Source of the DNA: Deltaproteobacteria bacterium
GTDB lineage: Bacteria; Desulfobacterota; Deferrimicrobia; Deferrimicrobiales; Deferrimicrobiaceae
Length of the DNA: 41,543 nt
Direction of reading: 5' to 3'
Assembly (NCBI GenBank): GCA_032125195.1
Contig: JAQBCN010000060.1
Span: 1 to 41,543 of the forward strand
Shown piece after piece: positions 2,386 to 32,913 of the stretch. The notes below the pieces were generated by a model. That model made no database searches. It was not told where the DNA came from and worked only from the letters and a program-made list of their open reading frames with translations. Both the position numbers and the translations under genes were made by a program. The first letter of the stretch is position 1, and each line of letters begins with the position of its first letter.

Positions 2386-2391
2386 TATAAT
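2386..2391 (+). promoter_or_regulatory. Candidate sigma-70 -10 element (TATAAT) for the pxpBCA-liv operon
   Basis: Perfect TATAAT 20 nt upstream of the pxpB ATG (2411) in a GC-rich context. No convincing -35. Confidence 0.45.
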
Positions 2392-2410
2392 GAGGTCCTC
2401 CGGGGGGAAC

Positions 2411-4089: not shown

Positions 4090-4093
4090 ACGA

Positions 4094-4852
4094 ATGCAGA
4101 TCGACCTGAATTGCGACATGGGGGAAGGGTTCGGCCGCTACGACATCGGGCAGGATGCGGAGGCGATGCCACTGATCTCTTCCGCGAACGTCGCGTGCGG
4201 CTTCCACGCCTCCGACCCCGGCACGATGCACCGGACGGTGAAGCTCGCGAAGGAATACGATGTCGCCGTCGGGGCGCACCCCTCCTTTCCGGACCGGGTG
4301 GGGTTCGGGCGCCGGGAGATGTCGGCGTCCCCGGCGGAGATCCGCGACGACGTGATGTACCAGGTGGGAGCGTTGCTGGCGTTCTGCAAGGCCGAAGGGG
4401 TGCCCCTTCGGCACGTCAAACCTCACGGCGCATTGTACAATATGGCGGCGAGGGAGATCGAGGTGGCGAGGGCGATCGCGGCGGCGGTCCGCTCGGTCGA
4501 TCCTTCGCTGTACCTGGTGTGTCTCTGCGGCTCGAACCTGGTGGCTGCCGCAAAGGAGGCGGGATTGCCGTACGCCGAGGAGGCGTTCGCGGACCGGGGG
4601 TACCGAAAAGACGGGAAACTCGTCCCGCGCCGGGAGCACGGGGCGGTCCTCGTCGAACCGGCCGAGGTGGCGGAGCGGGTCGTTCGAATGGTCCGTGACG
4701 GCGAGGTGACGACCGTCGACGGGATGGACATCGCCATCGCCCCGAAGACGATCTGTGTCCACGGCGACACCCCCGGGGCGGTGAAGATGCTCCGGGCGAT
4801 CCGGGCACTGGCGGGAAAAGAGGGGATTCGGATCAAAGCGTTCAGCGAATGA
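4094..4852 (+). CDS. pxpA: 5-oxoprolinase subunit A (LamB/YcsF family)
   Basis: Motifs IDLNCDMGEGFG, SANVACGFHA, GAHPSFPDRVGFGRR, HVKPHGALYN, EAFADRGY and TICVHGD. Confidence 0.93.
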   Translation: MQIDLNCDMGEGFGRYDIGQDAEAMPLISSANVACGFHASDPGTMHRTVKLAKEYDVAVGAHPSFPDRVGFGRREMSASPAEIRDDVMYQVGALLAFCKAEGVPLRHVKPHGALYNMAAREIEVARAIAAAVRSVDPSLYLVCLCGSNLVAAAKEAGLPYAEEAFADRGYRKDGKLVPRREHGAVLVEPAEVAERVVRMVRDGEVTTVDGMDIAIAPKTICVHGDTPGAVKMLRAIRALAGKEGIRIKAFSE

Positions 4853-12234: not shown

Positions 12235-12340
12235 GCGATGATAAAATCGTTTAATATCGAATATATATAATGGATCGCGATTTATTATCGTTATTCATCT
12301 GATTTTTATTGATCTGTTTATAACATTTTTATAGTATCAG
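12235..12340. promoter_or_regulatory. AT-rich divergent regulatory region between the Sec-DsbA/MauG-like operon and the fdn operon
   Basis: The most AT-rich stretch in the window. Contains overlapping ATC-N11-GAT dyads (12287-12303, 12297-12313) and a degenerate ModE-like 27-mer at 12287-12313. A TAGAAT -10 lies nearby on the minus strand at 12148-12153. Confidence 0.55.
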
Positions 12341-12409
12341 CGAGGATCCGGCGGTTTTCTCTTTTTACGGATACGGCGTCAATCCGACCGACCGAAGGAG
12401 GTGCACCGG

Positions 12410-15400: not shown

Positions 15401-15562
15401 GCCGGCGGTACGGTTCACGAAGTCGGACTCCCGTGGTGCTTCGGCTGGTTTACGCCGGGGGTGGGGGAATCCGCCAACCTCCTCACGCCGACGGCGGGGG
15501 ACGCGAATACCATGATCCCTGAAACGAAGGCGTTCATGGTCAACGTCAAGGCGAGGGGGTGA
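12410..15562 (+). CDS. fdnG: Formate dehydrogenase alpha subunit, Tat-exported, selenocysteine-containing (TGA 13010-13012)
   Basis: Tat signal SRREFFK and 4Fe-4S motif CPYCSVGC...LCPKG. HQARI-[TGA]-HSATVAALAESFGRGAMTNHW joins ORFs 12401..13012 and 13061..15562 in frame. Also ALRGESNVQG and a C-terminal molydopterin-binding domain. 1050 aa. Confidence 0.96.
13010..13059 (+). promoter_or_regulatory. SECIS element of fdnG
   Basis: UGA + 15 nt + GCGGCUCU-GGC-AGAGUCGU (13028-13046). Extendable by an A-U pair, a bulged U and CUG/CGG, with a lower GCGCC/GGCGC stem. Confidence 0.85.
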
Positions 15563-16350
15563 CCGCCATGGCCGAGGTACGCATGGGATTTCTCGTAGAC
15601 ACGTCGCGCTGCATCGCCTGCCGCGCCTGCCAGGTCGCGTGCAAGGCGTGGAACCACCTGGACGCGGACAAGACGGTCGAGAAGGGGAGCTACGAAAACC
15701 CGACCGACCTCACCCCCAACCTCTACAACCGGATCCGGTTCCTCGAGAGCGCGGACGCCGGGGGGAACGTGAAGTGGCTCTTCATGAACGAGCGGTGCGT
15801 CCACTGCGGCGACGCGGGGTGCATGAAGGTCTGCCCGGCGCCGGGGGCGCTCCACCGGACGAAGGAAGGGATCGTCGTCTTCGACAAGGAGAAGTGCATT
15901 TCGTGCAAGTATTGCGTCTCCGCCTGTCCGTTCAACATCCCCCGCTACGGGGCGGACGACAAGGTGACCAAGTGCCACCTGTGCTTCGACCGGATCGGGG
16001 CGGGCATGCTCCCGGCGTGCGCCCAGGCGTGTCCGACCGAGACGCTGCAGTTCGGGGGCCGGAACGCCCTGATCGCGAAGGCGAAGGGGGCGGGGAAGAA
16101 GCTGTACGGGGAGAGCGCGCTCGAGGGACTGGGGGTCGTCTACGCGCTCGAGGAGAAGCCCGAGGTGTACGGCCTTCCGGAGAATCCGTCGATCCCGACA
16201 TCGATCTTCCTGTGGAAGGACGTGGTGAGGCCGCTCGGGATCCTCGGCTTCTGGGGCAGCGTCGCCGCGGTGGTGGTCCACTACGTGACCTTCGGATCGC
16301 GCCAGCTCGAGGAGGACGGGAAGGGGAAGGGAGGCGATGCGCATGGGTAG
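15559..16350 (+). CDS. fdnH: Formate dehydrogenase iron-sulfur (beta) subunit
   Basis: Four Cys clusters (CIACRACQVAC; CVHCGDAGCMKVCP; CISCKYCVSACP; CHLC..PACAQACP) and a C-terminal TM helix. Start may be ATG 15568. Confidence 0.92.
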   Translation: MTAMAEVRMGFLVDTSRCIACRACQVACKAWNHLDADKTVEKGSYENPTDLTPNLYNRIRFLESADAGGNVKWLFMNERCVHCGDAGCMKVCPAPGALHRTKEGIVVFDKEKCISCKYCVSACPFNIPRYGADDKVTKCHLCFDRIGAGMLPACAQACPTETLQFGGRNALIAKAKGAGKKLYGESALEGLGVVYALEEKPEVYGLPENPSIPTSIFLWKDVVRPLGILGFWGSVAAVVVHYVTFGSRQLEEDGKGKGGDAHG

Positions 16351-16957
16351 GAAATACGTCGAGCGATTCAACACGGCCGAGCGGGTGCTCCACTGGTTCG
16401 TCGCCGCGTCGTTCTTCACCCTGCTCCTGTCGGGGCTGGGGCTCTACTCCCGGCTCTTCCACGGCTACTTCGACCTGTTCGGGGGCGGGGAGGGGGCGAT
16501 CCTGGCCCACAAGTACGGGGGGGTGGTCTTCTTCGTCAGTTCCCTGATGCTCTTCCTCAACCACGCAAAGGATATGTTCACTTTCGACGAGGACGACCGG
16601 AAGTGGTGCAAGTCGCTGGGGGGCTACCTGTCGAAGAACCCCGAGCACATCAACAGCGGGAAGTTCAACGCCGGACAGAAGCTGTTCGGCATCTTCATGG
16701 GGATCTCGACGCTGCTGCTCGGGATCACCGGGGTCATCAACTGGGTCCCCGAATCGTTCCCGCGGGGGGTCGTCCAGTTTTCGCTGCTGCTCCACGGCCT
16801 CCTGTTCGTCTGGTTCGTGATGCTCATGATCGTGCACGTCTACCTCACCACGATCGGCAACCCGGGGACGCTCGAGGGGATGTTGTACGGCAACGTCCGC
16901 AGGATCTGGGCGCGGACCCACCACCCGAAATGGTATAAGGAGGTAGAGGGCGAATAA
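16343..16957 (+). CDS. fdnI: Formate dehydrogenase cytochrome b (gamma) subunit
   Basis: Motifs ERVLHW, LLSGL, GKFNAGQK, LLH..IVHVY and WARTHHPKWY; four TM helices. Confidence 0.92.
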   Translation: MGRKYVERFNTAERVLHWFVAASFFTLLLSGLGLYSRLFHGYFDLFGGGEGAILAHKYGGVVFFVSSLMLFLNHAKDMFTFDEDDRKWCKSLGGYLSKNPEHINSGKFNAGQKLFGIFMGISTLLLGITGVINWVPESFPRGVVQFSLLLHGLLFVWFVMLMIVHVYLTTIGNPGTLEGMLYGNVRRIWARTHHPKWYKEVEGE

Positions 16958-16982
16958 TCGACGGGAAGGGGCTTCGGGAGGG

Positions 16983-17825
16983 ATGAGTCGTACGGCGGAC
17001 AAGATTGCGCACCTCCGGAAGACCGCTTTCGAGCATCCGGAGTACATCGACGTGCTCCTCCCGTTCGAAGAGATCTTCGCGTACGTGGACGGGAAGGAAG
17101 CCGGGACGGGGATCCGCTTCGCCGTCCCGGAAGGGAACGGGGCGGAGCGGGTGCAGGGAGGTCTTCCGCTCCTGTCTCCCGAGGCGCTCTCCGTGGATCG
17201 GGACGCCGCGACGGCCTTCCTTTCCGGGCTGCTCGACGTCCTGCGGCGTGTCGGCAGGGAGGGGCACGCGGATCTCGACCGGATCGGGGGGGGGCTTTCG
17301 GACGGTTCCCTCGACCTTGCCTCCCTGTACGTCGCCTGTCTTGCCCGGAAACGGGACGTCGTGGACCAGGCGGCGACCTCCCTTTCGGTCCAGGCGCCCC
17401 TGCTCGCCTTCGTCCTCGAGATTCCGTTGAAGACCGCCCTCGAGCGCGTTTCCTCCACCCTTCCCACGGAGCGGTTCGACGGATGGAAGGAAGGGTATTG
17501 TCCCGTCTGCGGCTCCCGCGCCGGGATGGCCGAACTTTCCGGGGACGAGGGGAAGCGGCGGCTCTCCTGCTCCGCCTGCTTCTTCCTCTGGCCGTTCCCC
17601 CGGATCCAATGCCCCTACTGCGGAAACGCGGACCCGGAAACGCTCTCCTATTTCACCGCCGGGGACGGGCCCACCCGGGTCGGGGTGTGCCGCGGCTGCA
17701 GCCGGTACCTGAAGACCTGCGATACGCGCCTCGGGAACGCGAACGTGCCGCTGGAAGCCGAAGACCTCGCCACCCTCCACCTGGACCTGCTGGCGGGGAA
17801 GGAAGGGTTCGAGAGAGGGAAATGA
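16983..17825 (+). CDS. fdhE: Formate dehydrogenase accessory protein FdhE
   Basis: GYCPVCGS, CSAC, RIQCPYCGN, CRGCSRYLK and DLATLHLDLLA; position in the fdn operon. Confidence 0.9.
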   Translation: MSRTADKIAHLRKTAFEHPEYIDVLLPFEEIFAYVDGKEAGTGIRFAVPEGNGAERVQGGLPLLSPEALSVDRDAATAFLSGLLDVLRRVGREGHADLDRIGGGLSDGSLDLASLYVACLARKRDVVDQAATSLSVQAPLLAFVLEIPLKTALERVSSTLPTERFDGWKEGYCPVCGSRAGMAELSGDEGKRRLSCSACFFLWPFPRIQCPYCGNADPETLSYFTAGDGPTRVGVCRGCSRYLKTCDTRLGNANVPLEAEDLATLHLDLLAGKEGFERGK

Positions 17826-19216
17826 GCCGCCTTCCCGGAGACGACGCGAAGGGCGGGGACTCCGCGCCCGTCCTGCGGTACGACGGGCGGCGGCTGGCCC
17901 CCACCCGGCATCTTCCCGTACGGGAGGTCCCCGTTGCCCTCACGGTCAACGGCGTCCTCCTCGCGACGCTGATCGCCTCGCCCCACGACCTGCAGTTCCT
18001 GGTGGCCGGTTTCCTCCGGATGCAGGGACTGATCCGTTCCGCCGGCGACCTCCAGACCTTGAGCGTGTGCGAAGATTTCGGCGCGGCGTCCGTCCGGATC
18101 CGGGGAGACGTGCCGGATCGCATCACCCCGACCTTCACCTCCGGGTGCGGCGCCGGGATCAGTTTCCACGTTCCCGCATCCGGAGGGCGCCAGGTCCAGC
18201 ACCCCTCCGCCGGGCCGTCCGTCTCCCCGGAGTCTCTTTTTTCGGCGATGGACGCGCTTGCGGGGGCGTCCGAGGCGTACCGCGGGAGCGGGGGGATCCA
18301 CTCCGCCGGCGCATGGGACGGCGAGCGGCTCCTCCTGTTCGCCGAGGATATCGGGCGGCACAACACGATCGACCGGATCGCGGGGCAGGCGCTCCTGGGG
18401 GGGATCGACCTCTCGGGCCGGATCCTCGTCGCCTCGGGGCGCGTGTCCTCGGAGATGGCGGCGAAGGCGGGCTCCCTCGGGATCTCCGTGATCGCCTCCC
18501 GCACCTCCCCCACCGACCTCGCGGTCAGGATCTGCGGGGAACTGGGGATCACACTCGTCGGGTACGTGCGGGGCCGCAGGTTCAACGTCTACACCCATCC
18601 GACGCGGATCGCCGCCGCGGCCGCGGAGAGGATTCCCGGGGTCACGGGAGTGATCCTCGCGGGGGGACGCTCCGGCCGGATGGGGAGCGACAAGGCGCTC
18701 CTGCCGTACCAGGGCGGGCGGTTCATCGAGGCGATCCACCGGCGGATGGAGGAGCTGTTCGACGAGGTGATCGTCGCCACCGGGGAGACGGCCCGGTACG
18801 ATTTCCTGCCGTGCCGCCGGGTGACGGATCTCTACCCCGGGATGGGCGCGCTGGGGGGGATCCACGCGGCGTTGCGGGCGAGCGAATCGGAGAAGGTCTT
18901 CGTCGTGGCGTGCGACATGCCGCACTTCGCGCCGGACCTCATCCGGCACCTGTGCTCCCTGACGGAAGAGGCGGATGTCGTGGTTCCCGAGGGGGAGGGG
19001 GGGATCGAGCCGCTTCACGCGGTGTACCGGAAGGGCGTCCTCCCCGCCGTGGAAGACGCGCTGCGGAACGGGCAGTGCCGCGTGGTCTCCTTCTTCGACC
19101 GGGTGCGCGTCCGCCGCGTTCCCTTCGCGGAGGTGAAGCGGATCGATCCCGATCTGCGCGCCTTCCGGAACATCAACACCCCCGAGGAGTATTACCGCTT
19201 TCGCGACGGGGAGTAA
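17822..19216 (+). CDS. fdhD-mobA: Fusion of FdhD sulfurtransferase and MobA molybdenum-cofactor guanylyltransferase
   Basis: ATG 17822 overlaps the fdhE stop. N-half has TSGCG, SGGIHSA, EDIGRHNTIDR, SGRVSSEM and LVGYVRG. C-half has VILAGGRSGRMGSDKA, GALGGIH, VVACDMP, EPLHAVY and NINTPEEY. Confidence 0.9.
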   Translation: MSRLPGDDAKGGDSAPVLRYDGRRLAPTRHLPVREVPVALTVNGVLLATLIASPHDLQFLVAGFLRMQGLIRSAGDLQTLSVCEDFGAASVRIRGDVPDRITPTFTSGCGAGISFHVPASGGRQVQHPSAGPSVSPESLFSAMDALAGASEAYRGSGGIHSAGAWDGERLLLFAEDIGRHNTIDRIAGQALLGGIDLSGRILVASGRVSSEMAAKAGSLGISVIASRTSPTDLAVRICGELGITLVGYVRGRRFNVYTHPTRIAAAAAERIPGVTGVILAGGRSGRMGSDKALLPYQGGRFIEAIHRRMEELFDEVIVATGETARYDFLPCRRVTDLYPGMGALGGIHAALRASESEKVFVVACDMPHFAPDLIRHLCSLTEEADVVVPEGEGGIEPLHAVYRKGVLPAVEDALRNGQCRVVSFFDRVRVRRVPFAEVKRIDPDLRAFRNINTPEEYYRFRDGE

Positions 19217-21920: not shown

Positions 21921-22543
21921 TCGAAAAGTTCAAGTCGTTGAATACCGTGGGCGTCCCCCTGGACCGGGGGAACGTCGACACCGACGCCATCATCCCGGCG
22001 CGGTACCTGAAGACGCTGAAGCGGACGGGGCTGGGCGTCGGGCTCTTTTTCGCGTGGCGGTACGACATGGACGGGAAGGAGCAACCCGATTTTCCGCTGA
22101 ACCGGCCTTCGTTCCGCGGCGGCAAGGTGCTGGTGGCTGGCGAGAACTTCGGCTGCGGATCCTCGCGTGAGCACGCCGTTTGGGCGTTGATGGACTTCGG
22201 TTTCCGCGCGGTGATCGCCCCGTCGTTCAGCGACATCTTCCACAACAACTGCCTGAAGAACGGGATGCTGCCGGTGACGCTCCCGGCCGCGGCGGTACGC
22301 TCGCTGATCGACGCCCTGCTCGCCGCGCCGGGCGGCAAGGTAAAGGTGGATCTGGCGGGGCAGACGGTTACGGGCCCGAACGGCGACGTTCACGCATTCG
22401 GGGTCGCCTCCTTCGCGAAGACGAGCCTCCTCGAGGGGCTGGACGAGATCGCCCTGACGCTGAAGAGTTCGACGGAGATCGATCGGTACGAGCGGGAGAG
22501 GAAGAAGGCGACGCCGTGGCTGTTCCTGGATCTCGCCGGATGA
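21917..22543 (+). CDS. leuD: 3-isopropylmalate dehydratase small subunit
   Basis: ATG 21917 overlaps the leuC stop. Motifs [30 protein letters not shown] and GLDEI. Confidence 0.95.
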
Positions 22544-23469
22544 GCACGACAGGGAAGGAAGGGCCCGGGAAGTTCGCGGTCGCTCTCGTCCAGATGTCGA
22601 TGGGGGCGGACCCGCGGGAGAACCTCGAACGGGGGGTGGGGCACGTCCTCGGAGCGGCGCGCGGGGGGGCGCAGGTGGTGTGCCTCCCCGAACTTTTCCG
22701 CACCCCGTACTTCTGCCAGACCGAGGAGACGGCCTTCTTCGACCTCGCGGAGCCGCTTCCCGGGCCGACCACCGACGCCCTCTCCGCCGCGGCGCGGAGT
22801 GCGGCCGTCGTCGTGATCGCGCCGGTCTTCGAGCGCCGGGCGCCCGGGGTGTACCACAACAGCGCGGCGGTGATCGACGCCGACGGGACGATCGCCGGGA
22901 TCTACCGGAAGATGCACATCCCGGACGACCCGGCGTTCTACGAGAAGTTCTACTTCACCCCGGGGGACCTCGGCTTTCCCGCGTTCGACACCCGCGCGGG
23001 ACGGATCGGCACGCTCATCTGCTGGGACCAGTGGTACCCGGAAGCGGCGCGCCTGACGGCCCTCGCCGGCGCGGGCGTCCTCTTCTACCCGACGGCGATC
23101 GGGTGGCACCCCCGCGAAAAGCGGGAGCATGGAGAGCGGCAGCATGACGCCTGGCGCACCGTCCAGCGGGGACACGCCATCGCGAACGGCGTCTACGTCG
23201 CTGCCGTCAACCGCGTCGGGCGTGAAATCCCTCCCGGGGGAGGGGACGGGATCGAATTCTGGGGCTCCTCGTTCCTGTGCGGCCCGCAGGGCGAGATCCT
23301 CGCCGAGGCGACCGCGGACCGGGAGGAGATCCTCTTCGCCGAGGTCGACCTCGCCCGCGTCGAGGAGGTGCGCCGGAACTGGCCGTTCCTGCGGGACCGG
23401 CGGATCGACGCCTACGGCGGGATCACGAGCCGCGTCCTCGACGGAGAGCCGTGGGGAAAGGGGCGGTGA
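22540..23469 (+). CDS. aguB: Carbon-nitrogen hydrolase, N-carbamoylputrescine amidase-like
   Basis: ATG 22540 overlaps the leuD stop. Nitrilase triad motifs LPELF, YRKMHIPDDP.FYEKFYF and ICWDQWYPE. Adjacent to an agmatine deiminase. Confidence 0.85.
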   Translation: MSTTGKEGPGKFAVALVQMSMGADPRENLERGVGHVLGAARGGAQVVCLPELFRTPYFCQTEETAFFDLAEPLPGPTTDALSAAARSAAVVVIAPVFERRAPGVYHNSAAVIDADGTIAGIYRKMHIPDDPAFYEKFYFTPGDLGFPAFDTRAGRIGTLICWDQWYPEAARLTALAGAGVLFYPTAIGWHPREKREHGERQHDAWRTVQRGHAIANGVYVAAVNRVGREIPPGGGDGIEFWGSSFLCGPQGEILAEATADREEILFAEVDLARVEEVRRNWPFLRDRRIDAYGGITSRVLDGEPWGKGR

Positions 23470-24515
23470 CCTCGGCCCGGATGCCCGCGGAGTGGGAGCC
23501 GCACGAGGCGACCTGGATCGGATGGCCGCACAACGCTTCCGACTGGCCCGGGAAGTTCGCCTCCATCCCGTGGGTCTACGGGGAGATCGTCCGGAAGATC
23601 GCCGCCGGCGAGGCCGTCCGGATCCTCGTGCAATCGAAGGCGCACGAGGCGAAGGCGGGCCGTCTTCTCTCCCGCGTCGGGGTCGATTCCGCCCGCGTCG
23701 CCTTCTTCCGCTTTCCGACCGATCGCGGCTGGACGCGCGACTTCGGCCCGATCTTCGTCTGCAGGGAGCGTCCGAAGCGCGGAGTGGCGGTCGCGGGGTT
23801 CGGGTTCAACGCGTGGGCCCGATACCCGAACTGGCGAAAGGACGCGGCCGTCGCCGCGCGGGCCGCGCAGGCGCTCGGCGTCCCGCTCCTTCCGGTCCGG
23901 CTCCGGGGGAAACGCGTCGTACTGGAGGGGGGCGCGATCGAGGTCAACGGCCGGGGAACGCTGATCGCTACGGAGGAGTGCCTTCTCGACGCGGAGGTCC
24001 AGGTCCGCAACCCCGGGATGGCGCGCAAGGAGTTCGAGGGGATCTTTCGCTCGTTCCTCGGCGTCACGAACGTGATCTGGCTGGGGAAGGGGATCGTCGG
24101 GGACGACACGCACGGCCATGTGGACGATCTGTGCCGCTTCACGGGCCCCCGCACGGTGGTGCTGTGCCGGGAGAAGGATCCGCGGGACGAAAATCATCGC
24201 GTGCTGGAAGAAAACCGGGAGCGGCTCGCGTCCGCACGGCTCGAAGACGGTTCCCGGCCCGAGGTGGTTCCGCTTCCGATGCCCGCGCCGCTGCGCCTCG
24301 ACGGGATCCGCCTGCCGGCGAGCTACGCCAATTTCTACATATGCAACGCGGCGGTTCTCGTTCCCACCTTCAACGACCCGAACGACCGGGTCGCGCTCGG
24401 GATCCTCTCCGAACTGTTCCGGGACCGGCCGGTGGTCGGAATCCACGCCGTGGATCTCGTGTGGGGGTTCGGCACGCTCCACTGCCTGACGCAGCAGCAA
24501 CCGGTGTCCGGTTGA
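23466..24515 (+). CDS. aguA: Agmatine deiminase (peptidyl-arginine deiminase family)
   Basis: GTG 23466 overlaps the aguB stop. Motifs MPAEWEPH, WTRDFGP, FNAW, LEGGAIE, DDTHGHVDD, ASYANF and GTLHCLTQQQP. Confidence 0.9.
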   Translation: MTSARMPAEWEPHEATWIGWPHNASDWPGKFASIPWVYGEIVRKIAAGEAVRILVQSKAHEAKAGRLLSRVGVDSARVAFFRFPTDRGWTRDFGPIFVCRERPKRGVAVAGFGFNAWARYPNWRKDAAVAARAAQALGVPLLPVRLRGKRVVLEGGAIEVNGRGTLIATEECLLDAEVQVRNPGMARKEFEGIFRSFLGVTNVIWLGKGIVGDDTHGHVDDLCRFTGPRTVVLCREKDPRDENHRVLEENRERLASARLEDGSRPEVVPLPMPAPLRLDGIRLPASYANFYICNAAVLVPTFNDPNDRVALGILSELFRDRPVVGIHAVDLVWGFGTLHCLTQQQPVSG

Positions 24516-25009: not shown

Positions 25010-25027
25010 TGTGCGCCGGCGGGTGAC

Positions 25028-26653
25028 ATGGCCGGCCCGGACCTCCTGCTGATTCACCCGCCCGCCGCCCGGCCCGCGGAACCGCCCCTGGGGACGGCGG
25101 TGCTCCTGTCCCACCTGCGCCGGGGAGGCGCGACGGCGGAGGCGATCGACGCCAACCTGGAGGCGCACCTTTACCTGCTCGACGGGGATCGGCTGGCCGC
25201 CGCCGCCGGCCCCGCACCCGCGATCGCTCTCCACCGGGCCATGAAGGGCGTCCCCGAGGCGCTCTCCTTCCTCCGTTCCCCCGATGCCGCGAGATCGTTC
25301 CCACGGTACGTGACCGCCGCGCGACGACTGAACGCGGCGTTGTCCGCGCATCGCGGCGCGGGCGGGCGGGAACGTTGGACGCTCGGCGACTACGTCCACG
25401 GCGATCTCTCGGAGTTTTCGCCCCGGGACCTCTCTCTCGCGGCGTCCGGGAAAGCGGGAACGGTCTTCTCCGGCTACTTCCGCGACGCCCTCCTCCCCCG
25501 CGTCGTCCGGATGCGTCCGCGCGGCGTCGCGATCTCCGTGAACTACCGGCACCAGATCCTCCCCGCCTTCGAGCTTGCGGGGTTGCTCCGACGTCGCCTT
25601 CCCGGTATCCCTGTCTTCGGCGGCGGGGGGATGTTCACCTCCTGGCGGCCTTCCCTCCGCGGCATGGACTGTTCGTTCCTCCCCTTCGCCCGGGTCGGGT
25701 TCGGCCCGGGGGAGCATTCCCTCGCGGCGTTGACCGGAAGCGCGCCAACGGGCGGCGGCATCTTTTTCGAGGACGGGGAAGCGGTGGAGTTCCTCCCCGA
25801 TTTCGGCTTCGCGCCGCTCCGGGAGTATCTGTCCCCGGAGCCGGTCCTCCCGGTCACCTCGACGCGGGGATGCTACTGGAGGAGATGCCGGTTCTGCCCC
25901 GAGGCGGTCGCCCCCATCCATCCGTACCGGGCGACGGACCCGGGGACGTTCCCCGCGCTTCTGCGGGAGCTGTCCGACCGGTACGGCGTCCGGCGGTTTC
26001 ACCTGACGGACAACGCGATCCCGGTTCCCGTTCTCCGCTCGATGGCGGCCGCGGGGAGCGCGCTGCGCGGCTTTTCGTGGCACGGGTTCGCCCGCTTCGA
26101 GCGGGAACTGCTCGAACCGGATCTGGCCTCCTCGCTCGCCGCCGCGGGGTGCTCGATGCTTCAACTGGGGCTGGAGAGCGGCTCGCAGCCGCTTCTGGAT
26201 CGAATGGGAAAGGGGACGCGCGTCGCCGACGCTTCGGCGATCCTGTCGAACCTCTCCCGCGAGGGGATCGTCGCCTACGTGTACGTGATGCTCGGCGCTC
26301 CGGGAGAGACGAAGAACGACGCGGAGCGGACGTTGTCGTTCCTCTCGGAGCACGCCGGGGAGATCGGCTTTCTGAACCTGTCGATCCTCAACATGCCGCG
26401 CGATGCATGCTGGACGGGAATCGCCGAAGAGGGCGTACCGCGGGAGGGCGGGTTCAACGACGAAGAGGAACCGCTCGGCTTGTACCGGCCGGTTCCCGAG
26501 GGGGACGGCTGGGGGAGGGCCCAGGCCCGGCGGTTTCTGCAGAAGCGGATCCTGGGCGACCCGGCGATCCGGGCCATCGCGGCCCGGACCCCGCCCTGGT
26601 TCGGCGACAGCCACGCCTTCTTCTTCCGCCCGGGGGGACATTCCTGGTTCTGA
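25028..26653 (+). CDS. Radical SAM protein with N-terminal cobalamin-binding-like domain
   Basis: N-terminus DLLLIHPP...PPLG typical of B12-binding radical SAM proteins. Also TRGCYWRRCRFC (CxxxCxxC), LTDNAI, LGLESGSQPLLDRMGKG and MLGAPGET. Confidence 0.85.
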   Translation: MAGPDLLLIHPPAARPAEPPLGTAVLLSHLRRGGATAEAIDANLEAHLYLLDGDRLAAAAGPAPAIALHRAMKGVPEALSFLRSPDAARSFPRYVTAARRLNAALSAHRGAGGRERWTLGDYVHGDLSEFSPRDLSLAASGKAGTVFSGYFRDALLPRVVRMRPRGVAISVNYRHQILPAFELAGLLRRRLPGIPVFGGGGMFTSWRPSLRGMDCSFLPFARVGFGPGEHSLAALTGSAPTGGGIFFEDGEAVEFLPDFGFAPLREYLSPEPVLPVTSTRGCYWRRCRFCPEAVAPIHPYRATDPGTFPALLRELSDRYGVRRFHLTDNAIPVPVLRSMAAAGSALRGFSWHGFARFERELLEPDLASSLAAAGCSMLQLGLESGSQPLLDRMGKGTRVADASAILSNLSREGIVAYVYVMLGAPGETKNDAERTLSFLSEHAGEIGFLNLSILNMPRDACWTGIAEEGVPREGGFNDEEEPLGLYRPVPEGDGWGRAQARRFLQKRILGDPAIRAIAARTPPWFGDSHAFFFRPGGHSWF

Positions 26654-26693
26654 CACGGGAGAAAGGGAAGGAGTGTCCTCCCCCTGCGGAGTC

Positions 26694-28706
26694 TTAGCTC
26701 CGCAGCACCACCCGGGCGTCGGCGATCGACAGCCCCCGCGGGTGGACGATGACCGGGTTGAGGTCCATCTCCTCGATCTCCGGGTGGGACGCGAGGAAGG
26801 CCGACAGCCGCATCAGGAGGTCCCTCAGGGCGTCGAGGTCCCCGGCGGGCTTCCCGCGGAGCCCCGTGAGCGCCTTGTACCCCCGGATCTCGCGGATCAT
26901 CCCGACGGCGTCCTCCTCCGAGAGCGGCGTGACGCGGAACGAGACGTCCTTCATCACCTCGACGAAGATCCCCCCGAGGCCGAACATCACGGCGTGGCCG
27001 AACTGGGGGTCCTTCGTGACGCCGACGATCACCTCGTGCCCGGCGGGCGCCATCGCGCAGACGAGCGCGCCTCCGGTCCGCGCGCCGAGCCTTCCTTCCG
27101 CCGCGCGGATCGACCGGAACGCCGAGCGGACGCCGGCGTCGTCGGCCACGTTGAGGAAGACGCCCCCGGCGTCGCTCTTGTGCGTGACGTCGGGTGAGTT
27201 CATCTTCACCGCCACGGGGAAGCCGATCCCGTGGGCCGCGGCGACCGCCTCGTCCTCGGTCCCGGCGCGCCGGAAGCGGGTCAACGGGAAGCCGGCGCGG
27301 GCGAGGAACTCCATCGAGTCGGCGGGAGTCATCGCCGTCCCCGACGTCGCCTCCCCGTGTCCCGCCTCTTCCATCGAGAGCGGAAAGAGGTCGCGGCGGA
27401 ACCGGACGTGGCACGAGAGGGCCTTCACGGCCCGCTCGGGCGTGGGGAAGACGGCGATCTTCTTCTCGTGGAACAGCACCCGTTCCGCGCGCTCCACGTC
27501 GGCGCCGCCGAGGTAGGCTACCAGCTCGCAGCGGCCGGGGCGGACCACTTCGGAAGCCCCGGGGATCGGGTCGCCGAAGATCGTCATCACCGCGTCGAAC
27601 TCCCCTTCCGCCGCGTCGAGCACGTTCCGGTAGCGGGCGGCGTCGGTGTCCCCGGTGAGATCGAGGGGGTTGCCTACGATGCAGTGGGAGGGGAGGATCT
27701 CGCGGAGTTTTCCGGAGAGTTCGCCGGAAAGCGGGGTGACGCGCAGCCCTTCCTCCTCGGCCACGTCGGTGGCGATGATCGCGGACCCCCCGGAGCTCGT
27801 GACGATCAGCATTCGCGGACCCTCGGGAGGCGGGACGTAGGCGAGGGCTTTCGCGAAGTCGTACAGCTCCTCGAGCGTGTCGGCGCGGTGCACGCCGTTC
27901 TGCCGGAAGACGGCGTCGTAGATCTCGTCGCGCCCCGCGAGCGACCGGGTGTGCGACTCCGCCGCCTTGCGCCCCCGCTCGGTCCGCCCGGCCTTGAAGA
28001 TCACGATCGGCTTCGTGCAGGCGCGGACGGCGGAGAGGAACTTCGGCGCGTCCTTCACCCCTTCGATGTAGAGCGCGATCACCTTCGTGTGCGGGTCCTC
28101 CGCGAAGAAGGCGATCAGGTCCGCCTCGTCGACGTCCGAACGGTTCCCCATGCTGACGAAGGCGGAGAACCCGAGCCGCTCTTCCGAGGCCCAGTCGATC
28201 AGAGCGGCGCCGACGGTGCCGCTTTGGGAGACGATCGCGATCTCCCCCCGCCGGGTGATCAGGGGCCACGAGGCGCACACGCCGTGGTACGGGTAGTTCA
28301 CGCCCTGGCAATTCGGCCCCACCACGCGGATCCCCGCCTCCTCCGCGGCCTTTGTCATCTCCGCCTGGAGCGTCGCCCCGGGCTCGCCGGACTCGGCGAA
28401 CCCCCCCGTGATCACGATCGCCGACTTCACCTTCCGCCCCCCCAGTTCCCGCATCGTCCCGGGGACGAGCTTCGCGGGGATGATCACGACCGCGAGGTCG
28501 GTCCCCTCGGGGAGATCGGCGGCGGACTTTACGGAGGGGACGCCCAGGATCACCTCCCCCTTCGGGTTCACGGGGACGATTTCGCCGGCGTAGCCGGCCT
28601 CCTTGATGTTGCGGAAGATCTGGAACCCCATCTTGTCGGGGTTCGAGGATGCGCCGATCACGGCGATCCGGGAGGGACGAAACAGGGGAGACAGGGGAGA
28701 GGTCAT
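26694..28706 (-). CDS. Acetate/acyl-CoA ligase (ADP-forming), fused alpha-beta
   Basis: CoA-binding LFRPSRIAVIGAS, GPNCQG, SQSG, SMGN, phospho-His motif ESHT, and ATP-grasp GFPVAVK..HKSDAGGV, DPQFG and EMDLNP. Start at ATG 28706. Confidence 0.9.
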   Translation of the reverse strand: MTSPLSPLFRPSRIAVIGASSNPDKMGFQIFRNIKEAGYAGEIVPVNPKGEVILGVPSVKSAADLPEGTDLAVVIIPAKLVPGTMRELGGRKVKSAIVITGGFAESGEPGATLQAEMTKAAEEAGIRVVGPNCQGVNYPYHGVCASWPLITRRGEIAIVSQSGTVGAALIDWASEERLGFSAFVSMGNRSDVDEADLIAFFAEDPHTKVIALYIEGVKDAPKFLSAVRACTKPIVIFKAGRTERGRKAAESHTRSLAGRDEIYDAVFRQNGVHRADTLEELYDFAKALAYVPPPEGPRMLIVTSSGGSAIIATDVAEEEGLRVTPLSGELSGKLREILPSHCIVGNPLDLTGDTDAARYRNVLDAAEGEFDAVMTIFGDPIPGASEVVRPGRCELVAYLGGADVERAERVLFHEKKIAVFPTPERAVKALSCHVRFRRDLFPLSMEEAGHGEATSGTAMTPADSMEFLARAGFPLTRFRRAGTEDEAVAAAHGIGFPVAVKMNSPDVTHKSDAGGVFLNVADDAGVRSAFRSIRAAEGRLGARTGGALVCAMAPAGHEVIVGVTKDPQFGHAVMFGLGGIFVEVMKDVSFRVTPLSEEDAVGMIREIRGYKALTGLRGKPAGDLDALRDLLMRLSAFLASHPEIEEMDLNPVIVHPRGLSIADARVVLRS

Positions 28707-28723
28707 CCGCGTGCTCCTTTCGG

Positions 28724-29944
28724 TCAGTAGACGAGGCGGGCGCGGATCGTGTTGGGGATCCGCCGGAGGTCTTCCACGATCCCGAGGTCGCACCCCTGCG
28801 CCACGTCGATCAGCGCGTACCCCAGGCGTCCGCGCGTCTCGAGCCGCTGCCCGGCGATGTTCATGCCGTTCCGCGCGAAGAGGTCGTTGATCTGCGCCAG
28901 CATCCCGGGGAGGTTCTCATGGACGTGGGCGAACCGGTGGCGCTGGGAGGTCGAGGAGGGGGAGAGGACCGGAAAGTTCACGCTCGTGGACGTGCTCCCC
29001 GTCGACAGGTATTCGAGAAGCGTCGCCGCCACGAATCCTCCGATCCCCTGCTGCGCCTCCTCGGTCGAACCGCCGATGTGGGGGGTCAGGATCACGTTCG
29101 GGAGCCCCTGAAGCGGCGAGGAGAAGGGGTCCTTGTTGGAGCGGGGCTCCTCCGGGAATACGTCCACCGCCGCGCCGCGGACCTTCCCGGCGCGCACGTT
29201 CCGCGCGAGCGCCTCCACGTCCATCACGAAGCCGCGGCTCAGGTTCAGGAAGATCACCCCGTTCTTCATCGCCGCGAATTCCCGCTCCCCGACGAGCCCC
29301 CGGTTTTCCTCCCGTCCGTCGACGTGGACGGTGACGATGTCCGAGACCCGGAGAAGTTCCTCCAGGGAGGATTTCCGGGCGTTCCCCAGCGAAAGCTTCT
29401 CCACGAGGTCGTGGTAGTACACCTCCATCCCCATCGCTTCCGCAAGGATGGAGAGTTGGGAGCCGATGTTCCCGTACCCGACGATCCCGAGTTTCTTCCC
29501 CCGGATCTCGTGGAACCCTTCCGAGGACTTCCCCCATACCCCCCGGTGGAGGTCATTGCTGCGGTCGAAGACGCCGCGCAGGAGCAGGACCATCTCGCCC
29601 AGGGCAAGCTCGACCACGCTGCGGGTGTTGCTGTAGGGGGCGTTGAAGACCGCCACCCCGCGCCGGCTGCACGCCTCGAGGTCGACCTGCTCCGTCCCGA
29701 TGCAGAACGCGCCGATGGCCAGAAGATCCGGGGCGCGCTCCAGAAGGTCGGCGGTAACACGGGTTTTCGAGCGGATCCCGAGAACGGAGATGTCCCCGAT
29801 CTCCTGGGCGAGCACCTTCCGGGGGGGGCTGTGCGGCACCCGCTCCACGGCGTGCCCCGCCGCCGCGAAGACCGCCCCCGCGTCGGGGTGGATGTTCTCC
29901 AGCAGCAGGATCTTCATCGCATGCCGAGGGGAGCCACGCGGCAT
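28724..29944 (-). CDS. serA: D-3-phosphoglycerate dehydrogenase with C-terminal ACT domain
   Basis: Motifs KILLLENIH, GIRSKT, FCIGT, FNAPYSNTRSVVEL, GYGNIG, DVFPEEP, TPHIGGSTEEAQ and HENLPGMLAQIN. Start is ATG 29944 (TGATG overlap with the upstream gene) or ATG 29917. Confidence 0.9.
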   Translation of the reverse strand: MPRGSPRHAMKILLLENIHPDAGAVFAAAGHAVERVPHSPPRKVLAQEIGDISVLGIRSKTRVTADLLERAPDLLAIGAFCIGTEQVDLEACSRRGVAVFNAPYSNTRSVVELALGEMVLLLRGVFDRSNDLHRGVWGKSSEGFHEIRGKKLGIVGYGNIGSQLSILAEAMGMEVYYHDLVEKLSLGNARKSSLEELLRVSDIVTVHVDGREENRGLVGEREFAAMKNGVIFLNLSRGFVMDVEALARNVRAGKVRGAAVDVFPEEPRSNKDPFSSPLQGLPNVILTPHIGGSTEEAQQGIGGFVAATLLEYLSTGSTSTSVNFPVLSPSSTSQRHRFAHVHENLPGMLAQINDLFARNGMNIAGQRLETRGRLGYALIDVAQGCDLGIVEDLRRIPNTIRARLVY

Positions 29945-30831
29945 CAGGATCGGCAGACGGGGCAGGAGGGGGAACCCCCTTGTTCCGCCCGGCGGCGGTC
30001 CTCCTCGTCCTGGTACTGCGGGACGTCGTGGCGGGGCGTACGGCCGTCTCCTTCCGCGAACGCCTTCGCTTTCCACTCCTCATCCTCCGACCAGCGGAAC
30101 GGAAGTTCCTTCATGGAGCCCGGGGTCGTCATCGTCTCGAAGGAGGAGAGCGCCTCGACCAGAATCCGGTGCTGCAGGTCGGGCGCGTGCGGCTTGCCGG
30201 TCGTGTGCCCGAGGGGAAAGTCGAGGAACGCCGCGCGGGGGGGGTTGACCGCTTCCGTGATGTCCCGCGCGCTCGTCATGCAGAGCGTCGGTATCCCGGC
30301 GGCCTCCGCGTGCCTTGCGACCAGTCCCACGGACTGGTGGCAGACGGGTCAAACGGGTACCAGCAGGACCGCGTCGACGCCATCCTCGAGGAACCGCGTG
30401 GTCAGACGCGGGGCCAGGTCCTCGGTGACGCGGCGGGAGGAGTAGATTCCTCCCATGAACGCGTGGAAGCGGCTCGCCAGTCCCCCGAGGAACCCCTCCC
30501 GCACAAGGCGGCGCAGCGTGTCGATCGGGAAGACGACGTTCGGGTCCGTGCGCGCGTTGGACAGGTCGTAGGCGAAGTGGGTCGCGCGCAGTTCCTTCGT
30601 GTCGATGTCCGTCGGGATTTCGCGCAACGAGGTGTCGTCCTTGTAGTGGAACGCCACCTGCCCGGCGGCGTAGATCCCCCCCGAGGCGACCAAACCCAGC
30701 CGGCATTGCGAAAGGGGCTTGCGAAGCGGCGCCCACGGCGCGGTGTCCCGGTTGACCACCCAGTTGTACGACTTGTACCCAAGCCTCGCGTAGTTGTCGC
30801 GGATCCTCGGAATGTAGTCGACGGGCCCCAT
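29944..30831 (-). CDS. PrdB/GrdB-family (proline/glycine reductase selenoprotein B-like) selenoprotein, UPVC motif (TGA 30349-30351)
   Basis: ORFs 30349..30852 and 29944..30330 are in frame: DGVDAVLLVPV-[TGA]-PVCHQSVGLVARHAEAAGIPT...NPPR...FPLG. The N-half has PLRKPLSQCRLGLVASGG and DPNVVFPIDTLR. SD GGAGG precedes ATG 30831 and a TAGAAT -10 lies at 30851-30856. SECIS-like hairpin present. 295 aa. Confidence 0.88.
30320..30351 (-). promoter_or_regulatory. Bacterial SECIS-like element of the PrdB-like gene
   Basis: mRNA reads UGA + 10 nt + ACCAGUCC-GUG-GGACUGGU, a perfect 8-bp stem (30320-30338), extendable with UGC/GCA. Confidence 0.8.
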
Positions 30832-30943
30832 GATTCCCTCCGTGCCCTGCATTCTACCGCAGAACGGGTATTCGCGAGGAGGGAGGGAAACGGCGGGAGG
30901 GCGTCCGGGCCCGCGAGCCCGGGCGCCCCGTGTGCCGGCGGGT

Positions 30944-31432
30944 CTACCTCGCCATGCCGGCGAAGATGTCGCCTTCCTCCATTCGGGCGGCGTGGATCTT
31001 CTCCGGTTTGACCAGGAATACCGGCCGCTTCGTGGTGTAAACCACTCTTTCCGCCGTGCTTCCGAGCAGCGTCCGCGCGAGGGCCGTTCCCCCGTGGGTG
31101 CTCATCACGATGCAGTCGACATCCTCGCTGTGGGCGGTCGCGAGGATCCCGGCGTACGGTTCCCCGGAAGGGACCAGGACCCGGGATTTCACGGAGATCG
31201 CTGCGAGCCGTTTGCCGATCTTCTCGAGATACGCCGTCGCCCGTTCCACGGCTTCGCCGTACGCCCTCGACTCCTCGGTCTGTCCGGCCTCCGGAGCCTT
31301 CTCGAGAGGCACCGGTACGACCTTCAGGAGAAGCACCTCGGCACCCGTTCCTTCCGTCATCTTCTCGACCTGATCGATTGCCCGCTCCGCGAGCGCGGAC
31401 CCGTCCAAAGGCACCAGGATTTTCTTGAACAT
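30944..31432 (-). CDS. Universal stress protein (UspA family)
   Basis: Motifs MFKKILVPLDGS, DCIVMSTHG and LLGSTAERVV...PVFLV. Confidence 0.9.
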   Translation of the reverse strand: MFKKILVPLDGSALAERAIDQVEKMTEGTGAEVLLLKVVPVPLEKAPEAGQTEESRAYGEAVERATAYLEKIGKRLAAISVKSRVLVPSGEPYAGILATAHSEDVDCIVMSTHGGTALARTLLGSTAERVVYTTKRPVFLVKPEKIHAARMEEGDIFAGMAR

Positions 31433-31582
31433 TTTGGGCCTCCTTTCGGTGGGGATCTTATTTCGGTTAACGGACCGACGGGACGGGGGTACGTCCGAGG
31501 AAATCGGTTGCCGGGGGTGCGGCAGAGATGGAAGGGGTCATCGGTGGAAGGGACATGGCACACCCCCGGCAAGACGTATTGC

Positions 31583-31597
31583 TGTATACAGTATACA
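31583..31597. promoter_or_regulatory. Palindromic operator TGTATAC-A-GTATACA (GntR-family-like) between usp and the RND operon
   Basis: Perfect 7-1-7 inverted repeat, AT-rich, in the divergent intergenic region about 80 nt upstream of the RND adaptor gene. Confidence 0.6.
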
Positions 31598-31677
31598 ACC
31601 CATCGCGGGGGCGTCAACCGGATATCCGGGCGGGCCGCTTTCTGCCATTGCCCGATCCCGTGGCACCGTCGTAAACT

Positions 31678-32913
31678 ATGATGATGATCAAAGAATCCCG
31701 AAGTTCCACGGATTTCCGCACGCTTGTGCCGCTCGGCGCCCTGCTGCTTGCCGTTTCCTGCATTGCCTGCGGAAAGGACACGACGTCGGCGAGCGCGGCG
31801 GCGCGCGCGAAGGCCGAGGAACCGCGCCCGGTGCGCGTCGTAGCCGCCGCGGTCGGTCCTCTTCCGCGGACGGTGACCGTCACCGGGACGCTCGCCGCCG
31901 ACGAGGAGGTCGTCGCGGGGTTCAAGGTCGCCGGCCGCGTGAGCGAAATCGCGGCAGACCTGGGCAGCCCGGTGCGGAAGGGGCAGGTCCTCGCCCGCCT
32001 CGACCCGACGGATTTCCGTCTTCGCGTGGAGCAGGCCGAAGCCGCCCTCCGCCAGGTTCGCGCCGGGCTGGGACTCCCCAGGGACGGTTCGGGCGAAAGC
32101 GTCGACCCGGAGAAGACCGCGCTGGTCCGCGAGGCCCGGGCGGTGCTGGAGGAGGCGCGCCTGAACCGGGATCGCATGGCGCGGCTCTGGGAAAAGAATT
32201 ACATCGCCCGGTCCGAGGCCGACGCTTCCGTGTCCAGGCTCCTGGTCGCCGAGAGCCGCTACCAGGCCGCCCTTGAGGAGATCCGGAACCGTCAGGAGCT
32301 GCTTGCGGAGCGGAGTTCCGGCCTCGCGCTGGCCCGCCAGCAGCTGGCCGACGCGGTGCTGAGCGCTCCGATCGACGGGGCCGTGCGGGAGCGCAAGGCT
32401 TCGGTGGGCGAGTATCTCGCGGCCGGCGCTCCGGTGTTCGCGCTGGTCCGGGTCCACCCGCTCCGGCTTCGGGTGGCCGTTCCCGAGCGGGACGCATCCT
32501 CCGTGCGGATCGGGCAGGCGGTCCGGGTCCTTCTGGAGGGAGACCCGGCCGCGCACCCCGGCCGCGTGGCCCGCCTGAGTCCGTCCATCCAGGAGCAGAA
32601 CCGCACGCTGATCGTCGAAGCCGAGGTGGCGAACCCGGACGGGAAGCTTCGCCCCGGCTCGTTCGCCCGCGCCGAGATCGTGGTCGAGGCCGACCGCACC
32701 GCCGTCATGCTTCCGGCCTCGGCGGTGGTGACCTTCGCCGGCCTCGAGAAGGTGTTCGTCGTGAAGGACGGGAAGGCCGTGGAACAGCGGATCCGGACCG
32801 GCCGTCGTTCCGGCGATCGGCTGGAGATCCTCGAAGGGGTCGCTGCCGGCGCGCAGGTTGTGACCGACCCCGGAAACCTGGTCGGCGGGATGCCTGTCAC
32901 CGTGACCCGGTAG
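31678..32913 (+). CDS. RND efflux periplasmic adaptor (membrane fusion protein)
   Basis: Lipoprotein-like signal LLLAVSCIACG. Motifs VAGRV..DLGSPVRKGQVLARLD, a long helical hairpin, APIDGAV, LRPGSF and EILEGV. Confidence 0.9.
   Translation: MMMIKESRSSTDFRTLVPLGALLLAVSCIACGKDTTSASAAARAKAEEPRPVRVVAAAVGPLPRTVTVTGTLAADEEVVAGFKVAGRVSEIAADLGSPVRKGQVLARLDPTDFRLRVEQAEAALRQVRAGLGLPRDGSGESVDPEKTALVREARAVLEEARLNRDRMARLWEKNYIARSEADASVSRLLVAESRYQAALEEIRNRQELLAERSSGLALARQQLADAVLSAPIDGAVRERKASVGEYLAAGAPVFALVRVHPLRLRVAVPERDASSVRIGQAVRVLLEGDPAAHPGRVARLSPSIQEQNRTLIVEAEVANPDGKLRPGSFARAEIVVEADRTAVMLPASAVVTFAGLEKVFVVKDGKAVEQRIRTGRRSGDRLEILEGVAAGAQVVTDPGNLVGGMPVTVTR

Follow-up and report, generated by a model that had tools for sequence, protein, structure and literature searches.

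A PrdB/GrdB-superfamily selenoprotein that appears to stand alone, and its probably incidental serA and ligase neighbours

A 41,543-nucleotide contig from a bacterium of the Deferrimicrobiaceae (JAQBCN010000060.1, assembly GCA_032125195.1; the whole stretch is called the window here) carries four co-directional genes on its minus strand, coding for a universal stress protein (usp), a selenocysteine (Sec)-containing relative of the D-proline reductase subunit PrdB, a D-3-phosphoglycerate dehydrogenase (serA) and an ADP-forming acyl-CoA ligase. An original prediction made from this DNA read the last three as an operon, headed by an orphan PrdB/GrdB-like protein and defining a different reductive pathway, while granting that the linkage could be incidental. 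The question raised by the locus is whether the selenoprotein works within such a module, within a conventional Stickland reductase, or by itself. The reading that we prefer, at a probability of roughly 0.7, is that it is a stand-alone selenoprotein of a widespread PrdB/GrdB clade, acting as a self-contained reductase, and that its serA and ligase context is incidental.

The selenocysteine codon and its hairpin

The in-frame TGA lies where it was first placed, within VLLVPV-U-PVCHQS, and the reading frame stays open from there to the stop codon of the gene (Table 1). When one genome per species was scanned, 119 relatives emerged, from which 80 loci were kept, and in every one of these the best tblastn match spans the Sec site. 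The codon aligned to that site is TGA in 75 loci, TAG in one (Blastococcus tunisiensis) and Cys in four; a stop is thereby kept in 76 of 80. The surrounding motif, P-[VAM]-U-P-V-C-H-Q-[ST], is nearly constant, with slight deviations in the four Cys forms, and invariant residues are also present in the half of the protein that follows the in-frame stop.

The claim of a perfect stem resembling a selenocysteine insertion sequence (SECIS) likewise stands. The hairpin, ACCAGUCC-GUG-GGACUGGU, was tested for covariation in 77 sequences (70 distinct, 560 cells) against controls in which the 3' partner was slid or the alignment was shuffled 500 times. The cells are paired in 96.8% of cases, compared with 6.6-46.4% when the partner is slid, and both sides have changed in a compensatory manner at three of the eight pairs (42 cells), as where a C-G to U-A replacement couples a synonymous change in a His codon to a Val/Ile change. 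None of the 500 shuffles reached the observed percentage of pairing, number of changed cells or covariation score. Two further measures did not rise above chance, the number of pairs with a double change (reached by 248 of 500 shuffles) and the count of further pair types (reached by all 500). Folding energy of the single sequence is not significant alone, with z -1.28 over 60 nt (23 of 200 shuffles) and z -2.24 over a 96-nt stretch (4 of 200). The case for Sec decoding rests on the covariation and the conserved in-frame stop, and, judged from sequence, it establishes that the UGA is read as selenocysteine with the aid of the hairpin directly downstream. The window holds a second Sec gene, an FdnG-type formate dehydrogenase with an in-frame TGA at 13010-13012 (HQARIUHSATVA), and the organism would therefore decode Sec. 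No selA, selB, selC, selD or tRNA gene was found within the 41.5-kb window, and Rfam at its gathering thresholds gave no match there.

Several relatives depart from the common form at this site. In Blastococcus tunisiensis DSM 46838 (L041:10490-10492), where TAG replaces TGA, the downstream hairpin is mostly retained and the locus contains no tRNA gene. Members of the Geodermatophilaceae reportedly recode other codons for Sec, as described by Mukai and colleagues in 2016, and the TAG fits this. The Cys form of a Desulfobacterales metagenome-assembled genome (MAG) folds a different, 7-bp hairpin in the stretch equivalent to the SECIS (L029:10487-10546, a stretch that begins a few bases upstream of the Cys codon). 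This hairpin may be a remnant or may have arisen by chance, the DNA being GC-rich; on account of it, the notion of a hairpin lost in Cys forms was dropped. One protein of 347 residues (P0002, 63% identical), available as protein sequence only, reads LLVPV-T-PVCHQS, with Thr in place of Sec. The possibility that the terminal TGA encodes a second Sec in forms without the C-terminal CxxC tail was considered and rejected, since nothing coherent lies beyond that stop.

Translation could start at ATG 30831, giving 295 residues (about 32.9 kDa) with Sec as residue 161, or at ATG 30852, giving the 302 residues whose numbering is used below. The former start is the more likely, because a GGAGGG Shine-Dalgarno sequence (30841-30836) precedes it and because ATG 30852 falls inside a conserved TAGAAT box.

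Relationship to PrdB and GrdB

Membership of the superfamily follows from PF07355 (GRDB), matched at 46.5 bits against a gathering cut-off of 22, with residues 34-165 on model positions 210-345 of 347 and the match stopping three residues before Sec. The scores fall short of the narrower families: 163.1 bits against 300 for the PrdB equivalog TIGR04483 (the match covers 11-235 of 238), and 53.6 against 65.45 for TIGR01918, the selenoprotein B subfamily of glycine, betaine, sarcosine and D-proline reductases. GrdB, GrdF and GrdH (TIGR01917, NF040794, NF040795) share the superfamily and the UxxC centre, but score 52-60 bits against cut-offs of 602-800, and only the C-terminal half of these proteins of about 435 residues is matched. 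The likeness to PrdB of the Clostridium sticklandii type is closer. Alignment with the annotated PrdB of a Terrisporobacter plasmid runs over 230 residues without a gap at 33% identity and sets U168 and C171 on its U152 and C155, so that Sec meets Sec and Cys meets Cys within U-x-x-C-H; the two proteins are similar in size, and in both the SECIS hairpin follows directly on the UGA. They differ in the motif itself, VPV-U-PVCHQ(S/T) here against TAG-U-GTCHRS in PrdB, and in conserved extensions beyond PrdB, about 24 N-terminal and about 48 C-terminal residues long.

The C-terminal extension ends in a CPVC motif that echoes the active-site UPVC. Of 78 complete genes, 57 have a CxxC among the final 32 residues and 21 do not, the forms without it including those of Alphaproteobacteria, Entotheonella and Desulfobacterales, among others. 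More constant are the 52 columns that are invariant in 41 sequences of the clade, including the signatures FHYKDD and MGGIYSxR, and clade-specific invariant residues such as K71, R89, R101, R140, R271 and R274. A profile search of 1.84 billion representatives recovered 3128 superfamily members at E<=1e-3; among the best 150 of these, only 3 of 80 full-length members carry both signatures. Of 67 superfamily representatives scanned, a single one, P0173, passes the PrdB cut-off (453 bits). A FastTree phylogeny of 119 rows (SH-like support, midpoint drawing, one true PrdB row, the poorly aligned P0189 and P0212 left out) separates the 44 rows of the window clade from the rest by a branch of support 99 and places P0173 outside that group, with its nearest rows at a path of 1.9-2.5; the deeper joins are weak (support 34). 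The phylogeny that the original prediction had called for thus leaves the selenoprotein apart from true PrdB: by sequence, it is a homologue of PrdB that forms its own distinct clade of the PrdB/GrdB (PF07355) superfamily, and is not PrdB proper. Searches of the PDB by sequence and by profile gave no match at E<=1 or E<=10, so that the copy searched contains no solved relative.

The clade is spread widely. Its carriers are labelled Pseudomonadota, Actinomycetota, Deferrimicrobiota, Tectimicrobiota, Thermodesulfobacteriota, Binatota and, once, Spirochaete, and include Microthrix, Entotheonella and many marine Gammaproteobacteria, as well as the cultured Blastococcus tunisiensis, Vineibacter terrae and a Caenispirillum, which we take to be aerobes. 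One locus labelled as an Actinomycetota bacterium (L031) is 91% identical and has usp, selenoprotein gene and ligase in the order of the Deferrimicrobiaceae-type loci; it is probably a mis-binned or mislabelled contig.

The partners of a Stickland reductase are missing wherever they were sought. Among the 39 open reading frames (ORFs) of the window, none matches the families of PrdA/GrdE (PF09338), GrdA or PrdC, or Pfam families of the grdC or grdD type, and PF07355 is matched by the selenoprotein gene alone. The statement that no prdA, grd or trx gene is present therefore holds for the reductase subunits; a DsbA-like ORF with a thioredoxin fold does lie at 11921-11472. Sixty distant loci, each at most 71% identical, were examined with up to two ORFs per side, delimited by a rule on length and third-position GC content (GC3) and not by a gene finder, and none of their 218 neighbouring ORFs belongs to the PrdA/GrdE, GrdA or PrdC families. 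In annotated prd clusters, on the other hand, prdA, a small ORF and prdB are adjacent in all three; two of the three continue with prdD, a component-B-like gene and a proline racemase, and one has prdC. The description of the protein as an orphan of the PrdB/GrdB superfamily is borne out, and the window and flanking ORFs support the stand-alone state as the rule for the whole clade.

Nor has another partner taken their place. Clustering of ORFs within 8 kb on either side found, besides the gene itself, no broadly shared neighbour; those most often shared among the distant loci, a luciferase-like monooxygenase (16), SDR (11) and CoA-transferase III (9), all belong to large paralogous families. 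The context changes from group to group, with a MaoC dehydratase, a beta-lactamase-like gene and MatE in one gammaproteobacterial group, a luciferase-like monooxygenase, an RF-1-domain gene and SDR in a second, and ferritin, EamA and PhyH in a third group. Microthrix-like genomes have SpoU methylase, a class-I tRNA synthetase, photolyase and ScpA, and Entotheonella has HmuY.

These results bear on the simplest alternative, that of an ordinary B subunit of D-proline (or glycine or betaine) reductase whose PrdA or Grd partners are encoded elsewhere in the genome. A score of 163 bits where 300 is required, a separate clade with conserved extra termini, the lack of a partner near 60 distant loci when prdA adjoins prdB in each true cluster, and carriers such as Blastococcus and Vineibacter, presumably aerobic, make it scarcely credible, in spite of the clear homology to PrdB, the identical UxxC and the JGI labels that name many relatives D-proline reductase PrdB. 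The selenoproteome catalogues, in the portions available, also place the family under proline reductase (PMC1088965, PMC2398784).

Around the clade, other forms of the superfamily are found. Proteins that NCBI names 'glycine/sarcosine/betaine reductase selenoprotein B family protein', encoded on plasmids of Roseomonas haemaphysalidis and Haematobacter massiliensis, resemble the window protein in being stand-alone and of about 300 residues with a CxxC(H) centre, at 38% identity, and the Roseomonas locus is without prd genes; they differ in having Cys for Sec and in belonging to other superfamily clades, most of which lack FHYKDD and MGGIYSxR. On the Roseomonas plasmid p546-2 (L082, 5971-8356) the Cys-type PrdB-like gene stands tail to tail with selO, for the protein adenylyltransferase SelO. 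Fused forms also occur. In P0115 and P0118 (443 aa) an alpha/beta hydrolase precedes a member of the window clade that ends at Sec; in P0136 (514 aa) and P0140 (805 aa) an AMP-forming acyl-CoA synthetase precedes members of a neighbouring Cys clade; and P0089 (445 aa), possibly a chimera of assembly, combines a fragment of CoA-transferase III with a relative at 87% identity. A longer fused form of the window protein itself was not found, which is weak evidence.

The serA and ligase neighbours

The sequence TGATG at 29942-29946, proposed as an overlap of the selenoprotein stop with a serA start, is present but probably unused in that way, because the serA ORF of relatives has 397 codons for amino acids and no earlier start, which supports ATG 29917 (MKILLLEN); the gap between the genes is then probably 26 nt. 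The ligase does begin 17 nt after serA, as first noted (stop 28726-28724, ATG 28706), and from that ATG is 670 residues long. serA matches the phosphoglycerate dehydrogenase equivalog NF008759 over its full length at 570.9 bits (cut-off 404) and is, on sequence, a canonical phosphoglycerate dehydrogenase of the E. coli type. The ligase has the fused alpha-beta architecture of the ADP-forming acetyl-CoA synthetase (ACD) family but lies under every equivalog cut-off, with 441.9 against 567 bits for TIGR02717 (alpha domain) and 513.8 against 1200 for NF045494, and it is not a conserved partner of the selenoprotein.

The gene order that the original prediction took to define a pathway is not conserved in relatives, an outcome that the prediction had itself named as refuting it. 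Among close loci, which are Deferrimicrobiaceae-type MAGs at 80-92% identity, 15 have sequence downstream of the gene; serA is found in 8 of these and a ligase within 10 kb in 14, the exception (L061) reaching 2.1 kb beyond serA without one. The distance from selenoprotein gene to ligase varies from 55 nt to about 8 kb, and so do the genes between. The ligase follows directly in L007 and L031; a small ORF on the opposite strand intervenes in L001, L003, L005, L006 and L014, that of L005 weakly resembling a small cytochrome c; and serA alone intervenes in the window, L009 and L010. An extra ORF separates serA from the ligase in L004 (small, of no known family) and L011 (cytochrome-c3-like), as do some 6 kb in L002, with two sensor kinases, and in L008, while L017 has yet another order. 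Upstream lies usp in seven close loci; in others its place is taken by pntB, a sigma-54 activator or an ABC ATPase. L013 and L018, at 73-78% identity, have neither serA nor ligase nearby, and among the 60 distant loci serA is absent and a ligase occurs once, in L028, as a 34%-identical relative on the opposite strand.

The non-coding sequence gives the same impression of independent units. A TANNAT hexamer some 22 nt before the selenoprotein start, together with the Shine-Dalgarno sequence, recurs in 16 of 20 close sequences irrespective of the upstream gene, the exceptions being L004 (CACTAT) and L013, L016 and L018, which lack the box; the gene probably has a promoter of its own. The hairpin after usp has differing yet self-complementary versions, judged by eye, in L008, L010, L011, L014, L017 and L031. 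Ahead of the ligase, a conserved block of about 70 nt containing TTTGCTAC occurs in eight loci irrespective of the upstream gene (L001:11455-11546, with counterparts in L003-L008 and L014). In the window (28695-28790, minus strand) and L010 the 3' end of serA supplants this block up to 14 nt before the ligase ATG, and L009 retains the proximal 40 nt. Since the end of serA replaces the conserved upstream block of the ligase, the serA-ligase junction of the window would be derived, and these elements point to the selenoprotein gene and the ligase having been separate units in the ancestor. By eye, GG-N10-GC with TTGCT fits most copies of the block; a sigma-54 reading was not adopted, as L003 and L005 do not fit. 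The arrangement of selenoprotein gene, serA and ligase thus looks like a lineage-specific one, recently rearranged in Deferrimicrobiaceae-like genomes, and not like a functional module, and the incidental linkage that the original prediction had allowed for is the better reading, given the varying gene order and separate upstream elements.

Several points weigh against a self-contained reductase in an incidental setting. In the window the three genes run in one direction, 26 and 17 nt apart, and a search of 26400-31700 gave no terminator-like site. Fourteen of 15 close loci have the ligase no more than 10 kb downstream; in L028 (Desulfosarcina, 61% identity) a split ACD-type ligase and an acyl-CoA dehydrogenase converge on the gene; and there are the acyl-CoA synthetase fusions of the neighbouring clade (P0136, P0140) and the alpha/beta-hydrolase fusions within the window clade (P0115, P0118). 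The search for partners covered the window and flanking ORFs, with no genome searched whole. The CxxC tail is inessential to the chemistry, as 21 of 78 complete genes are without it, and both its placement and the self-sufficiency of the active site are deduced from sequence.

Two coupled readings draw on some of these points. One is the three-gene operon itself, a new reductive amino-acid or 2-hydroxyacid pathway conserving energy through a thioester, for which strand, spacing, lack of a terminator-like site and the same order in L009 and L010 can be cited. It is very improbable: serA is absent from 7 of 15 close and 60 of 60 distant loci, stands up to about 6 kb from the ligase where present, with sensor kinases in between, and belongs to the canonical dehydrogenase equivalog, and its junction with the ligase replaces the ancestral upstream block of the latter. 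Because the genes are co-directional with short gaps and no terminator-like site, they may still be co-transcribed by read-through in the window genome, but this would be a local outcome of rearrangement and not the sign of a shared pathway.

The other reading couples the selenoprotein to the ligase alone, with an acyl-thioester (of CoA) made or used by the former and converted by the latter to acid and ATP. To the downstream ligases of the close loci, adjacent in L007 and L031, the ACD-type ligase of L028 and the synthetase fusions can be added CoA-transferase III within 8 kb in nine distant loci. The linkage is nevertheless gone at 78% identity and below (none in L013 and L018, one in 60 distant loci), the ligase carries its own upstream block, and the clade with fusions joins the window clade weakly (support 34). 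Nor are acyl-CoA-related families enriched beside the gene: they account for 17 of the 218 ORFs next to it and for 6 of the 144 lying four to five genes away (Fisher p = 0.19; p = 0.63 with six loci of shared synteny counted once). We regard this coupling as unlikely.

Table 1. Coordinates of features in the window
Feature	Position	Strand	Remarks
Formate dehydrogenase-N-type cluster	12335-19216	+	FdnG with twin-arginine translocation (TAT) signal and in-frame TGA 13010-13012
ADP-forming acyl-CoA (acetyl-CoA) synthetase-type ligase, fused alpha-beta	26694..28706	-	CoA_binding_2, Succ_CoA_lig, ATP-grasp_5
serA, D-3-phosphoglycerate dehydrogenase with C-terminal ACT domain	28724..29917	-	NF008759; Pfam 2-Hacid_dh, 2-Hacid_dh_C, ACT
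PrdB-like selenoprotein gene	29944..30831	-	Stop TGA 29946-29944; translated with TGA as U; 80 related loci
C-terminal CPVC, residues 297-300 of 302	29953..29964	-	Echoes active-site UPVC
SECIS-like hairpin	30320..30338	-	Perfect 8-bp stem, GUG loop; begins 10 nt past TGA
Sec codon TGA	30349..30351	-	U168 (302-residue numbering), U161 from ATG 30831; motif U-P-V-C
-10-like box TAGAAT, putative own promoter of selenoprotein gene	30851..30856	-	TANNAT conserved; function putative
GC-rich hairpin after usp	30898..30929	-	Terminator-like without U run; fold z -1.06, not significant alone
usp, universal stress protein	30944..31432	-	PF00582, 91 bits; upstream of selenoprotein gene

Elsewhere in the window, the formate dehydrogenase cluster continues after FdnG with subunits of the 4Fe-4S and cytochrome b types, then an FdhE-like ORF and an in-frame fusion of an FdhD domain with a MobA-like domain. 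There are also 5-oxoprolinase-type subunits (CT_C_D, LamB_YcsF; 2354-4849), N-carbamoylputrescine amidase and agmatine deiminase in overlapping frames (22171-24515), and a B12-binding radical SAM gene (25010-26653) that converges on the ligase gene.

Possible chemistry and the meaning of the clade

If the selenoprotein is, as we prefer, a self-contained reductase with no pyruvoyl PrdA/GrdE partner, a mechanism can be outlined by analogy with the reaction scheme reportedly proposed for D-proline reductase by Kabisch and colleagues in 1999. The selenolate would attack a small, probably anionic substrate at an electrophilic carbon or sulfur; Cys171 would resolve the adduct to a selenenyl-sulfide with release of the reduced product; and the C-terminal CxxC, a general thiol system or both would re-reduce the selenenyl-sulfide. 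The CxxC could on this scheme serve as a resolving or relay dithiol, a redox relay and a metal site both being conceivable for it. In the apparent absence of a pyruvoyl partner, a good leaving group would have to come with the substrate itself.

The same features could belong to a selenol/thiol redox protein of general function that serves in stress or antioxidant defence and has no dedicated small-molecule substrate. The UxxC centre with a C-terminal CxxC, the usp gene upstream in the window and seven close loci, the lack of a conserved metabolic partner and the spread among aerobes would all suit such a role, and we consider it possible, if doubtful. The 52 invariant columns, many of them charged or polar and far from UxxC, speak instead for a specific binding site, the protein shares its core with substrate-specific reductases, and the linkage to usp is limited to close relatives.

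The self-contained reductase can also be framed more boldly, as a self-sufficient Sec-dependent enzyme of reductive bond cleavage that dispenses with a pyruvoyl partner in aerobic marine and soil bacteria as well as in anaerobes. The selenolate would directly attack a carboxylate whose leaving group needs no activation as an imine, candidate substrates being a quaternary ammonium compound (glycine betaine or proline betaine), a sulfonium compound or an alpha-halo acid, with amine and acid released, and the selenenyl-sulfide would be recycled via the C-terminal CxxC and a thioredoxin-type system. The proposal depends on the premise that no imine can form between betaine and a pyruvoyl group. 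We hold it to be rather unlikely in this specific form; if it were true, the abundant 'proline reductase' of the surface ocean would be a mis-named enzyme with a different substrate.

The marine connection arises from selenoproteome catalogues, whose 'Proline reductase PrdB' family is described, in the parts available, as pfam07355, UxxC-containing, mostly in Sec forms and abundant in oxic marine samples. In the Sargasso Sea it was the third most abundant selenoprotein family, with 42 Sec genes (Zhang, Fomenko & Gladyshev 2005, PMC1088965); in the Global Ocean Sampling (GOS) data it comprised 235 Sec and 110 Cys forms (Zhang & Gladyshev 2008, PMC2398784); and 'proline reductase' was listed in Anaeromyxobacter dehalogenans and Geobacter uraniumreducens (Zhang et al. 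2006), as far as the available sections of these papers go. The marine gammaproteobacterial relatives found here fit that description, and the catalogue family is probably the window clade, a match made on motif, Pfam family and habitat and not by comparing sequences. The difference is one of interpretation, in that the catalogues, within the same portions, treat the family as D-proline reductase and say nothing about a missing PrdA or additional termini. Selenoproteome reviews of 2022 and 2026 likewise describe PrdB, in their available text, solely as the Stickland enzyme D-proline reductase. In the literature searched, catalogue supplements excluded, no paper describing the stand-alone state, the separate clade, the terminal extensions or the CxxC tail was found. 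The clade has probably been catalogued as a selenoprotein, under the name 'proline reductase PrdB', since 2005, and its status as a stand-alone, separate clade appears to be new. For the ligase, the available part of a Deferrimicrobium genome paper (PMC9386147) assigns ADP-forming acetyl-CoA synthetase to ordinary acetate and ATP formation, and has glycine enter the cleavage system; its main text contains none of the terms proline, glycine reductase, Stickland and selenocysteine.

For the window itself the result is deflationary, as the three-gene pathway is unsupported. For the family it would mean a correction of annotation, many fragments being labelled PrdB by JGI, and a caution that neither Stickland metabolism nor the conversion of betaine to trimethylamine should be inferred from such matches; grdH-like matches from oxic-ocean Proteobacteria are mentioned in the accessible text of PMC9321204 and PMC5537630. 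Marine catalogues, in the portions available, rank the family among the most abundant bacterial selenoproteins (PMC1088965, PMC2398784), yet it occurs without PrdA nearby. The separate clade thus poses the question of what role a Sec enzyme with a PrdB core plays on its own.

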